Of a stretch of DNA of 64,000 bases, positions 15,263 through 20,107 are shown piece after piece (position 1 is the stretch's first letter; each line of letters starts with the position of its first letter). The stretch is from contig NZ_JAICZA010000003.1 in NCBI RefSeq assembly GCF_025933915.1, positions 4,504-68,503 of the forward strand, given 5' to 3'. Both the position numbers and the translations under genes were made by a program. Below the pieces are notes generated by a model. That model saw only the letters and a list, made by a program, of their open reading frames with translations. It was not told the DNA's origin and searched no databases. The DNA is from Mycobacterium sp. GTDB taxonomy: Bacteria; Actinomycetota; Actinomycetes; Mycobacteriales; Mycobacteriaceae.

Positions 15263-16303
15263 CTACGCCTCGCGCATCGTCCCGACGAAGTCTTCGACCA
15301 GGTCTTCCATCGCCACCATCGCCACCACGGCGCCGCTTTCGTCGATCACCAATGCCAGATGGCTATTGCTGCGACGCAGCCGCGACAAGGCGTCGGCCAG
15401 CGGTAGCGACCGCGGCAGCCCCGGCAGGGGCCGCACCTTCGCCAGATCGATCACCGTCTGTGGATCACCGCCGAGTGTCAGCACGTCCTTGATGTGCAGA
15501 TAGCCGATGAAACTGCCGTCGACGTTTGCCACGGGGAAGCGGGAGTAACCGCTCTGGGCCAAGGCGTCCTCGACCGCTCCCACCGTCGGGCCCTTGCCCG
15601 CCGCGACCACCGGCACCGCGTGCACCCCGGCGAGAGGCACCGCCACATCGCCGACCACCCGGTGGCGGATTTGCAGCGCCCGAGCCAGCCGGGTGCCTTC
15701 CTCCTGGTCCAGCAACCCTTCCGACGCGGATTCGGCGATCATCTCGCTCAGCTCGACGGGAGAGACGGTCATCTCCAGTTCCTCCTTGCGCTCGACGCCG
15801 AGCGCGCGCACCACCAGGCTGGCGCACTTGTCGTAGAACACGATGAACGGCCGGGCCGCGCGCACGTAGGCCAGATAGGGCGGGACGAGCAGCATCGCCG
15901 TGCGCTCCGGACCGGCCAGCGCGATGTTCTTGGGCACCATCTCGCCCAACAGCACGTGCAGCGTCACCACGATTGCCAGCGCGATCGCGAACGACAACGT
16001 GTGCAGCAGCGCCGGGTGAATCGCGGTCAGCCCGAGCGCCGTTTGCAGCAGGTCGGAGACGGCGGCCTCGCCGATCCGGCCGAGCAGCAGCGAGGCCGCC
16101 GTGACGCCCAACTGCGCGCCGGCCAGCATGGACGGCAGCTGCTCACCGGCGCGGATCACCGTGACGGCGGCCGCTTTGCCCTGTTCGGCCAGCGCTTCGA
16201 GGCGGTCGCGCCGCGCCGAGATGAGCGCAAACTCCGCCCCGACGAAGAACGCGTTCACCACGATCAGCAGGCACGCCAGCAGCAGGCCCATGGTGTCGTT
16301 CAT
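15263..16303 (-). CDS. Hemolysin/CorB-CNNM family protein (DUF21 + CBS pair), Rv1841c-like
   Basis: [47 protein letters not shown]; start overlaps the upstream gene's stop. Confidence 0.92.
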
Positions 16304-17670
16304 CGGTGTCCCCCCGCCGCGGGGATTTCGTCGTGACCACTGAGTTCAGTCAATTCGAGCAGGTCGATCCGGCGGCCGTCCATCCGGATGACCCGCGCCT
16401 GCCAGCGCGTCACCGCGTCCAGCAGCCCATCCGCGTCCAAGCCGGGCAGCGGCACCGTTTCGCCGGCGGCCGGGATGTGACCGATCTCGCGCAGCACCAG
16501 GCCGCCGATCGTCTCGTAGGGACCTTCGGGTGCGCGAAAGCCGGTGGCGGTGGCCACCTCGTCGATGCGTAACAGGCCCGACACCCGCCAGCCGTTGCCG
16601 GCGGGCACCACATCCGGGGTGGCGTCGTCGTGCTCATCGCGGACATCGCCCACGATCTCTTCGATCAAGTCCTCGAGGGTCACCATGCCCGCGGTGCCGC
16701 CGTATTCGTCGACGACCAGTGCGGTTTGCAGGCTGTTGGCCCGGATCTCGGCCATCACCGCATCACCGTCCAGCGTTGACGGCACCACCGCAACGGGTTG
16801 GGCCACCGTGGTCAGCAGCGTGCGCGCGCGGTCGGCCCGCGGGATCGCGAACACCTGCTTGACGTGCACGATGCCGACGGTCTCGTCGAGGTCGCCCTCG
16901 ACGATGGGGAAACGGGAAAACCCGGACTCGGCGGCCGCGGCCACCAGGTCGGCGACCGTGTCGTCGGTCTGCAGCGCCAGGATCTTGGACCGCGGCGTCA
17001 TCAACTCCTCGGCGCTTAGGGTTCCGAACTTCAGCGATCGCCGCACCAGGCCCGCTGTCGCGGCGTCCAGTGCACCGCTGCGCGCGGACGAGCGCACCAG
17101 TGACAACAACTCTTGCGGTGACCGCGCGGACCGCAGCTCCTCGGCCGGCTCGATGCCCAGCCGGCGCACGATCCAGTTCGCCGCGCCGTTGGTCAATCTG
17201 ATCGCCGGGGTCAGCAGCAGCGAGAACAACAGCTGAGCACCCACGACGGCGCGGGCGGTCGAGAGGGGTCGCGCCACCGCCAGGTACTTGGGGACGAGCT
17301 CGCCAAACACCATCGACACCGACGTCACGATCACCAGCACGAGGACGGTCATGATCGCGTCGCCAACCTTGTCGGGGATGTCGATCGTGTCCAGCCACGG
17401 GTGCGGCAAGTCCGCCACCATTGGATCGGTCAGGTAGCCGGCCGCCAGCGTGGTGACGGAGATCCCGAGCTGGGCGCCCGACAATTGAAACGACAGCCGG
17501 TGGTGCGCGCGACGGATCCAGCGGTCGCGGCGGCCACCGCCGCGGGCGTTTGCCTCCACGGCGCTGCGGTCCAGGGTGGTCAGCGAGAATTCGGCGGCGA
17601 CGAACACTGCGTTGCCGAAGATCAGCACCGTGATCGCCACAACGCTGATCACGGCGACGGTGACGTTCAT
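16300..17670 (-). CDS. Hemolysin/CorB-CNNM family protein (DUF21 + CBS + CorC_HlyC), Rv1842c-like
   Basis: [68 protein letters not shown]. Confidence 0.94.
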
Positions 17671-17804
17671 GAACTACGCCGCCCGCTGGTCGAGGGTGGT
17701 GGCCCGGGGACCGAGACAGGCGCCGGAGGAGGCTCCGCATCGGGCGGCTCGTTCGACGGCCCGTGCGCCGGCAAGCCGATGGCCTGCACGGGTGCCTGCG
17801 GCAC
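17667..17804 (-). CDS. Unannotated 45-aa proline-rich leader ORF ([45 protein letters not shown])
   Basis: GAAAGGA SD 5 nt before GTG 17804; its TGA overlaps the ATG of the next gene (ATGA); candidate -10 TAGCAT at 17870-17865; 14 of 45 residues are Pro. Confidence 0.6.
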
Positions 17805-17952
17805 GTCGATCCTTTCGCTGCCTGGTAACCGAGCGGACGCGGTTGCTTCCGTCTTTGCTGCCTTATGCTAGCCCGGGTGAAGGCCGTGCCGCGCCGGTCA
17901 TTCGGGGTCATCCCGGTGCCGCCGCCGGATCACACCGGAGACCCGGGGCAAC

Positions 17953-17971
17953 TTCGGTATGCCTACCCTTA
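17953..17971. promoter_or_regulatory. IdeR box upstream of mbtK
   Basis: TTCGGTATGCCTACCCTTA matches 16/19 positions of TWAGGTWAGSCTWACCTWA; candidate -10 TACGCT at 17978-17983. Confidence 0.75.
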
Positions 17972-17992
17972 CTCAGGTACGCTCTGCGCACT

Positions 17993-18616
17993 ATGCCCGA
18001 CGCCCCAACGGAAACGTCGTCCGTTCAGATCCTGCCGCGCCAACGCTTCGATATCGCCGACGCGGTCGCGCAGATTCCCCGGCCACCCGTGCCCTCCCTG
18101 GATCGGCCCTTCGGGCTGCGCGTCGCGCGGCTCGCCGACGCGGACATGGTGGCCGAGTGGATGAACCGTCCGCATCTGGCCGAGGCGTGGGAGTACGACT
18201 GGCCGACGCCGCGGTGGCGGCAGCACTTGGACGCCCAACTCGAGGGCACCTACTCCCTGCCGTTGATCGGAAGCGTGCGCGGCGAAGATTGTGCTTATCT
18301 CGAACTCTATTGGGGTGCAAAAGACCTGATCTCGCGACATTATGACGCCGAGCCTTACGATCTGGGGCTGCACGCCGCCATCGCCGATCTGAAACTGGTG
18401 AACCGCGGCTTGGGGCCGATGCTGTTGCCCCGCATCGTGGCCAGCGTCTTTTCGTTGGAACCGCGTTGTCGCCGGATCATGTTCGACCCCGATCACCGCA
18501 ACGCCACCGCGCGCAGGGTGTGCGAGTACAGCGGATGCGCGTTCCTCGGCGAGCACGACGCGACGAACCGGCGCATGGCGCTCTACGCGCTAAAAGCCCC
18601 GACCACGGACGCGTAA
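17993..18616 (+). CDS. mbtK: Mycobactin lysine N-acyltransferase (GNAT, Rv1347c-like)
   Basis: [57 protein letters not shown] closely follow MbtK; 207 aa. Confidence 0.9.

Positions 18617-18664: not shown

Positions 18665-20107
<1,443 letters not shown>

Follow-up and report, generated by a model that had tools for sequence, protein, structure and literature searches.

A conserved upstream open reading frame joined to a CNNM transporter operon in Mycobacterium and related genera

Proteins of the CNNM/CorB family are candidate exporters of Mg2+ or polyamines. Here we analysed the start of an operon encoding two of them in a 64,000-nucleotide stretch of Mycobacterium sp. DNA (contig NZ_JAICZA010000003.1, positions 4,504 to 68,503; hereafter the window, whose own numbering is used throughout). 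On the minus strand, the two genes are preceded by a short upstream open reading frame (uORF). This leader is real: it is an unannotated cistron, the first on the mRNA of the CNNM operon. Cation-transporter genes preceded by a coupled uORF or leader peptide are known, and the questions treated here are how far this leader is conserved, which of its parts are kept and what it may do.

Results

A leader cistron overlaps the first CNNM gene

Read 5' to 3' on the minus strand, the locus consists of a -10-like hexamer (TAGCAT), a leader of ~54 nucleotides (nt), a Shine-Dalgarno (SD) sequence (GAAAGGA), a spacer of 5 nt, a GTG start, 45 codons, a TGA that overlaps the ATG of the first CNNM gene, and then gene 1 and gene 2 (Table 1). 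The original prediction, made from this DNA alone, had described the -10 hexamer, the strong SD and a 45-codon frame with 14 prolines, two PPP runs and one PP, and all of these are present on this strand. It had also described two ATGA overlaps that chain the leader to gene 1 and gene 1 to gene 2, and both junctions are found. Transcription is predicted to start at about 17857-17859, which places roughly 54 nt of leader before the GTG. A generic sigma-70 scan found no promoter match. The hexamer aligns with a GCTAnCAT block that is kept 40-70 nt upstream of the uORF GTG in an alignment of 33 Mycobacterium loci, and TANNNT hexamers stand at a similar distance in other genera.

Table 1. Positions of the leader elements and CNNM genes in the window
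Feature	Position	Strand	Basis
-10-like hexamer TAGCAT (TANNNT type)	17865..17870	-	read; aligns with conserved GCTAnCAT
uORF SD GAAAGGA, 5 nt before GTG	17810..17816	-	read; pairing energy with 16S 3' end
Start-codon hairpin GUGCC-GCA-GGCAC, 5 bp, 3-nt loop; GUG, codons 1-4 and first base of codon 5 (V-P-Q-A-P)	17792..17804	-	folding and comparison
Leader ORF (uORF), 45 codons plus TGA	GTG 17804-17802 to TGA 17669-17667	-	sequence read
D/E/P-dense segment, codons 19-29, including the first PPP (17724-17732)	17718..17750	-	counterpart of conserved CU-rich block by alignment
Second PPP run, codons 35-37	17694..17702	-	site of the GCCGGG-N7-CCCGGC inverted repeat in other species; degenerate here
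ATGA overlap, leader stop and gene-1 start	17667..17670	-	read
CNNM gene 1, 456 aa: CNNM transmembrane domain, CBS pair, CorC_HlyC; orthologue of Rv1842c	16300..17670	-	Pfam
ATGA overlap, gene-1 TGA and gene-2 ATG	16300..16303	-	read
CNNM gene 2, 346 aa: CNNM and CBS, without CorC_HlyC domain	15263..16303	-	Pfam

Pairing with the 3' end of 16S rRNA was calculated at -9.6 kcal/mol for the uORF SD versus -5.8 kcal/mol for the 18 nt before gene 1, against a mean of -3.1 kcal/mol and a 5th percentile of -7.6 kcal/mol in random windows. Gene 1, for which the original prediction had noted no SD of its own, thus has at most a weak one (-5.8 kcal/mol). Because gene 1 has so little SD, its translation probably depends mainly on ribosomes that terminate on the leader and reinitiate. 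Gene 2 is preceded, within the end of gene 1, by an SD-like GGGGGGA at -10.3 kcal/mol (16304-16323, minus strand), and so the second ATGA junction may not rest on coupling alone. With its own SD and start in the 5' leader of an annotated gene and a 4-nt overlap of stop and start, the leader has the arrangement of the NUGA termination-reinitiation class of uORFs known from M. tuberculosis.

The encoded peptide is unusual in composition. Proline makes up 31% of its residues, with PPP at codons 25-27 and 35-37 and PP at codons 20-21; the first basic residue comes only at codon 42, and an arginine pair stands at the end. As a chance background we took the 337 stop-to-stop segments of 35-60 amino acids in all six frames of the window. 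The proline fraction of 0.31 exceeds that of every one of them (mean 0.118, s.d. 0.057), two or more PPP runs occur in only 3 of the 337, and none reaches the density of residues 19-28, where eight of ten are aspartate, glutamate or proline (D/E/P). A Pfam search of the peptide gave no match, and among 5.8 billion clusters just one annotated protein, a hypothetical one from Rhodococcus, resembled it.

The best similarities of gene 1 to NCBIfam models, all below cut-off, include PaeA (a polyamine exporter), CorC and GldE. Since both CorC and PaeA are among them, the description of these genes as metal transporters is a family-level guess.

Frame and stop position are conserved across Mycobacterium

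To compare the leader within the genus, we assembled 110 loci, namely 80 that are orthologous by the gene-1 protein, 29 from an even sample of the genus, and the window. A 13-mer, GTGCCGCAGGCAC (at most one mismatch), lies upstream of gene 1 with GAAAGG(G) before it in 96 of the 110 loci, and in the same 96 the core GTGCC-NNN-GGCAC, the SD and the GTG are retained upstream of the orthologous gene. Pairing of the uORF SD averages -9.1 +/- 0.6 kcal/mol across these 96 loci and that of gene 1 -4.5 kcal/mol. The leaders themselves vary from 8 to 52 codons and are highly variable in sequence. Nonetheless, the distance from the GTG to gene 1 is 2 mod 3 in 82/96 loci and for 19 of the 26 distinct lengths. 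Stop and start overlap as ATGA or GTGA in 62 of the 96, and most of the others stop 2-17 nt upstream. Such a pattern, with indels that leave one frame intact and a stop held at the following start, is the mark of a frame that is translated and coupled.

Within the close clade of the window, nucleotide diversity at codon positions 1/2/3 is 0.30/0.25/0.27 in the leader versus 0.04/0.05/0.22 in gene 1. Between this clade and distant mycobacteria, the segment E-P-P-D-A-E-P is kept through synonymous changes.

Some loci depart from this layout. In two (L106 and L107) the entire leader is lost and only 9 nt separate the guaB1 stop (…GGTTGGTGA) from the ATG of CNNM gene 1, so that the transporter genes seem to have joined the transcription unit of guaB1. 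The core is also missing in the M. asiaticum loci (L073, L075), in L074 and in several metagenome-assembled loci.

The M. tuberculosis orthologue is translated

A translated uORF upstream of Rv1842c, with a ribosome profiling (Ribo-seq) score of 548, is listed by D'Halluin et al. (bioRxiv 10.1101/2022.06.01.494293, Suppl. Table 6). According to the same source, its transcription start site is at 2092222, 48 nt upstream of the GTG, in a leader of 137 nt; its SD is GAAAGGGA, five bases before the GTG; and its 30 codons (2092174-2092082), which begin V-P-R-A-P, overlap the gene start at 2092085 by 4 nt. It shares with the window leader the position between guaB1 and the first CNNM gene, the SD, the GTG, the V-P-x-A-P start and the 4-nt overlap, and differs from it in having 30 codons, no PPP, two acidic residues and five arginines. 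Translation has been shown only for this orthologue, the leader of the window being read from sequence and comparison. Taken together, the conservation across relatives and the ribosome footprints in M. tuberculosis bear out the prediction of a real leader cistron with its own SD, joined stop to start to an SD-poor gene.

The Ribo-seq listing means that the existence of the uORF is not new. It appears there among hundreds of uORFs, with no analysis of conservation or function; the name Rv1842c was found in no main text of the literature searched, and the uORF was not found in the supplements of Smith et al. 2022 (PMC9094748) or of PMC11133741. The statement that the leader had not been described for this locus therefore needs amending, as the orthologue is catalogued in Suppl. 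Table 6, and remains correct in that no analysis of it was found. As far as these searches show, what is new here is the conservation across the family, the start hairpin, the frame-specific peptide that is acidic and poor in basic residues, and a single-copy 62-nt block with no Rfam match.

An invariant hairpin encloses the start codon

The first bases of the uORF are conserved in a way that its amino acids do not require. In 88 of 88 leaders the fourth codon, for alanine, is GCA, which accounts for 11.5% of the other alanine codons in these leaders; codon 3 ends in G throughout (NNG) while encoding Q, E, A or T, and the third base of codon 2, which falls in the loop, is free. This pattern fits a GUGCC/GGCAC hairpin around the start codon. 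Its stem bases are invariant across genera while the loop varies (GCA, TGA, CGA, CGC, CAC, TGC), and in the window its minimum free energy is -5.6 kcal/mol (z = -2.3). The combination seen throughout the family, an SD followed by a GUG within GUGCC-NNN-GGCAC, is found in the window at 17792-17816. As far as our searches go, an invariant 5-bp hairpin that locks the start codon in this way is new.

We also considered GTGCC-N3-GGCAC as the operator of a regulon and rejected this, as the genome holds 25 such sites versus 17 for the reversed control. The corresponding 16-mer is unique in the genome, and its exact matches in other genera sit inside unrelated genes. In one genus (g24; L136, L142, L182, L184, L186, L199) the leader starts with TTG, reads L-S-P-A-S-E and has no start hairpin, while the SD, the 62-nt block and a stop beside the gene start are kept. 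The hairpin is thus dispensable in at least one lineage.

Acidic composition rather than polyproline marks the peptide

The original prediction had built the leader around polyproline, and this did not survive the comparison. Among 93 distinct Mycobacterium leaders, PPP occurs in 18 and PP in 48, and the only conserved prolines are Pro-2 and Pro-5; none of the 23 listed motif-bearing leaders of other genera has PPP, and the M. tuberculosis peptide has none. We therefore rejected polyproline as a conserved feature of the leader and regard it as lineage-specific. The first PPP of the window (CCU CCU CCG) is an in-frame reading of a conserved CU-rich stretch that gives P-S-S or G-S-S in other species. 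More generally, what looks like a peptide motif or a polyproline run in a GC-rich leader can arise when a conserved nucleotide element is read in frame.

Charge behaves differently. Between V-P-x-A-P and the 62-nt block, the uORF frame encodes 12-24% D+E and 1-9% K+R, whereas the other two frames encode at most 3.6% D+E and 15-35% K+R. The acidic, basic-poor composition is specific to the uORF reading frame. In the window, the eight D/E/P among residues 19-28 also have the composition associated with intrinsic ribosome destabilization (IRD), at a position that is borderline, as the effect declines after 20-30 residues.

The leader extends to other genera with a single-copy block

Beyond Mycobacterium, at least 15 genera of the family have leaders of the same kind; direct inspection showed the leader in at least 13 genera other than Mycobacterium. 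Most loci in a sample of the same GTDB family have the SD GAAAGGA(A), the GTG within GUGCC-NNN-GGCA(C), V-P-[E/A/T]-A-P and 34-70 codons. These leaders share a near-invariant S-E-G-S-S-[T/I/S]-E-P-G-[D/E]-[K/R]-P-G, often end in an arginine run and have their stop at -3, +1 or +4, counted from the start of the gene. The motif was not found upstream of CNNM homologues when 26 loci from other families of the order were searched.

The conserved peptide segment corresponds to a block of 62 nt, from an alignment of which (A1) we built a covariance model (R1). Across 100 genomes sampled from 34 genera, R1 gave exactly one match per genome in 43 genomes and 16 genera. All 30 matches that were fetched lie 9-109 nt upstream of a CNNM orthologue, within a same-frame ORF, and the distance from the GTG to the block is 2 mod 3 in 36/36 block-bearing leaders of 19 distinct lengths. 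CCG, CCC and GGC do not change within the block, where the rare codons UCU and AAA dominate. What reads as P-G-x-x-P-G is an in-frame reading of the inverted repeat GCCGGG-N7-CCCGGC, whose variation is confined to loop bases. One base pair switches between C-G and U-A, and RNAalifold retains only the invariant 6-bp stem; covariation cannot prove these stems, as they show no variation. A search of Rfam 15, M-box included, gave no match around the element down to E = 10, with other matches in the window at chance level, and 10 related loci gave none at the gathering score. As far as these searches show, a family-wide leader with a start hairpin, a charge-selected peptide and a single-copy 62-nt block is undescribed.

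The window holds a reduced version of this element. R1 has no match in its genome, the inverted repeat is degenerate, and only the upstream half of the block (GAUGCGGAGCCUCCUCC) is recognisable, so that the full block is not present. The leader of the window is a derived copy in which the promoter, the SD, the start hairpin, an acidic and basic-free body, the arginine pair and the ATGA overlap are kept.

Several further proposals for the block were examined and set aside. Extra helices upstream of the inverted repeat, inspected by eye in A1, take different registers in Mycobacterium and in other genera, and the changes break pairs. Sequestration of the SD by the CU-rich block has a pairing probability of 0.10 versus 0.05 in shuffled sequences, lies above the control in 16 of 50 leaders and gives an inconsistent duplex ranking. 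A programmed frameshift at the CU-rich stretch and hairpin was rejected, since inspection by eye showed no X XXY YYZ heptamer and the UAG in the other frame is missing from some leaders. A near-invariant UCCUCUA, which directly precedes the inverted repeat (A1 columns 26-32; L112-L153), uses the rare serine codon UCU in 19 of 23 versions and the lysine codon AAA in 11 of 23; no test explains this stretch.

Genes upstream of the leader

Upstream of the leader, a divergent GNAT acetyltransferase gene (PF13523, E = 2e-42; 17993-18616, plus strand; probable ATG at 17993, 207 aa) lies between it and a gene for a guaB1-like inosine monophosphate dehydrogenase (18665-20101, minus strand). The GNAT stretch is present in 16 of the 30 closest loci examined, and an alignment of 33 species places the guaB1 stop, in most of them, within roughly 120 nt upstream of the -10 box of the leader. 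A 195-aa minus-strand ORF (17969-18556) is an antisense shadow of the GNAT gene, with GC at codon positions of 0.81/0.48/0.68 versus 0.68/0.48/0.80 in the plus frame. A weak Rfam match to flpD RNA inside the same gene (18083-18130, minus strand; 21.9 bits against a gathering score of 40, E = 0.037) was taken as chance.

Discussion

Judging by its arrangement and conservation, the uORF most likely delivers ribosomes to gene 1, perhaps in step with magnesium. In the fuller reading that we favour, with a probability of roughly 0.6, it is the first cistron feeding gene 1 by reinitiation and acts as a completion gate on transporter output. Ribosomes would load at the strong SD, start at a GUG held in the conserved hairpin, translate 45 codons of acidic, proline-rich peptide and stop at a UGA overlapping the AUG of gene 1. 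Gene 1 would then be translated mainly by reinitiation, and the second AUGA would chain gene 2 to it. Up to this point the reading is shown or strongly implied by sequence and comparison, and the gate is inferred. The gate would lie in the fraction of ribosomes that complete the D/E/P-rich chain, which would set the output of the transporter, and the start-codon hairpin may add control at initiation. In the clade of the window, polyproline would make completion dependent on elongation factor P (EF-P) as well.

The proposed role of magnesium draws on IRD, which arises from D/E/P-rich N-proximal chains (more than 3 in 10 residues) with small residues and is stronger at low Mg2+ (Chadani et al. 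2021). As such chains abort more often at low Mg2+, a gate of this kind would raise synthesis of the exporter at high Mg2+: more ribosomes would complete the leader and more of the presumed cation exporter would be made, and less when Mg2+ is scarce. Sensing of Mg2+, EF-P or proline is plausible, with indirect support from the frame-specific composition rich in D/E/P, which is similar to that of IRD sequences.

A number of observations weigh against this gate. The leader of the close clade shows no excess of diversity at third positions, which means that most of its residues are not individually constrained, and PPP, found in only 18/93 leaders, is confined to particular lineages. The slow-grower group that includes M. 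tuberculosis has a non-acidic leader, and with many slow growers of this kind any Mg2+ gate would have to be lineage-dependent. The D/E/P cluster lies at residues 19-29, whereas IRD weakens as the nascent chain lengthens. The strongest conservation is largely at the nucleotide level (rare GCA, UCU and AAA codons; invariant inverted repeats), hinting at a mechanism based on RNA for which the gate gives no account. Finally, both the substrate and the direction of transport of the CNNM proteins are guesses made at the level of the family, so that the presumed export of a cation is itself a guess.

The window leader could also be a partly decayed local copy of an ancient CNNM cis-regulator shared by mycobacteria, Rhodococcus-type genera and others. 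In that case, chain processivity, the hairpin and the RNA block would together form a translational ON switch for the exporter at high Mg2+ or another cation, a mirror of MgtL. We put this forward tentatively and think it more doubtful than probable.

Part of the evidence can be read without any sensing. The uORF may be a constitutive coupling device that loads ribosomes, hands them to an SD-poor membrane-protein gene and possibly shields the 5' end from Rho, the composition of its peptide being incidental; this would explain why frame and stop position are kept while most residues drift. Leaders of the M. tuberculosis type, neither acidic nor polyproline, yet retaining the SD, the GTG, the hairpin and the overlap, point the same way. 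In M. tuberculosis, NUGA overlaps occur frequently and go together with reduced Rho-dependent termination, and D'Halluin et al. propose termination-reinitiation for them (bioRxiv 10.1101/2022.06.01.494293). We nevertheless consider a purely constitutive device unlikely, as it gives no account of the acidic, basic-poor composition across genera, the invariant start hairpin or the single-copy block. The hairpin and the block are instead what an RNA-based regulator with the uORF as its expression platform would display, the hairpins and CU-rich stretch sensing a ligand, an ion, a protein or a small RNA and controlling initiation at the GUG or transcription through the leader, with the peptide secondary. 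Loops vary while stems do not, the rare GCA serves for Ala-4 throughout, and UCU and AAA are fixed, as are CCG, CCC and GGC in both arms; the block matches one site per genome (43/100 genomes), upstream of a CNNM orthologue in 30/30 fetched cases; and one pair switches from C-G to U-A. B12 riboswitches of M. tuberculosis, which are reported to act through uORF translation, offer a precedent (PMC11260477). Set against this, covariation is nearly absent since the stems never vary, the whole-leader fold is no more stable than shuffled sequences (z = -0.5), pairing between SD and CU-rich block is unsupported (0.10 vs 0.05), the block is degenerate in the clade of the window and Rfam gave no match. 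We judge an RNA-based regulator, too, to be an improbable explanation.

The uORF might instead encode a small acidic protein that acts in trans, with the CBS or CorC domains of the co-transcribed transporters as possible targets; its frame-specific and conserved acidic composition would suit such a role. Its length (8-70 residues) and sequence are very variable, however, its composition suggests disorder, the close clade shows no codon-position signature of purifying selection, and many species that retain the transporters have lost the peptide or carry it in scrambled form, all of which makes a trans-acting protein very unlikely. As for a chance open frame in GC-rich intergenic DNA, whose C-rich composition would supply the prolines, an estimate from base frequencies gives a 45-codon open frame a likelihood of ~40% at such composition, and CCN codons are common. 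The comparative data refute it and leave it with practically no probability: the frame is kept across many indels, the SD and start are conserved, the stop lies on the gene start in most species, the M. tuberculosis orthologue has Ribo-seq signal, and the proline content is above that of all 337 background segments.

The completion gate favoured here has relatives in other bacteria. MgtL and MgtP of Salmonella (mgtA and mgtCBR) are likewise short leader ORFs with proline and acidic codons before a cation-transport operon, and in MgtL the sequence EPDP triggers Mg2+-sensitive abortion of translation. MgtL controls an importer that is induced at low Mg2+, and does so by means of alternative RNA structures and termination of transcription. 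In the CNNM operon, by contrast, the leader runs into the gene start with no spacer in between, its proline codons are not conserved, and a scan found no intrinsic-terminator-like site at the leader; the CNNM leader would work by direct coupling, probably of the opposite sign, and not as an attenuator of the MgtL type. A similar arrangement is seen in YoaL, a small ORF that overlaps the upstream region of mgpA (yoaE) in E. coli and Salmonella: loss of the YoaL start codon lowers translation of MgpA, and mgpA rises at high Mg2+ (PMC12421838). MgpA is likewise a membrane protein that carries CBS and CorC domains, with a TerC membrane domain in place of a CNNM one. For CorC/YbeX, an IRD at the N-terminus has been proposed to raise the output of this CorC-family Mg2+/Co2+ efflux factor with Mg2+ (Chadani et al. 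2021). There, a similar acidic stretch rich in small residues is the protein's own N-terminus, whereas here it would belong to a separate upstream cistron coupled by reinitiation. Among mycobacterial leaders, the B12 riboswitch and uORF at metE and ppe2 are also reported as structured leaders in which uORF translation relays the signal (PMC11260477); in the CNNM leader no aptamer was identified and Rfam gave no match.

That the leader has been retained through the history of the family indicates tight control of the CNNM genes, and its GUG, hairpin, acidic codons and stop position offer mutable handles for finding the signal. If the uORF is indeed a completion gate, sensing of Mg2+ through the nascent chain would extend from the attenuators of enterobacteria to a simpler design without a terminator, and this would account for the conservation of a uORF that is one of hundreds in the M. 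tuberculosis catalogue.

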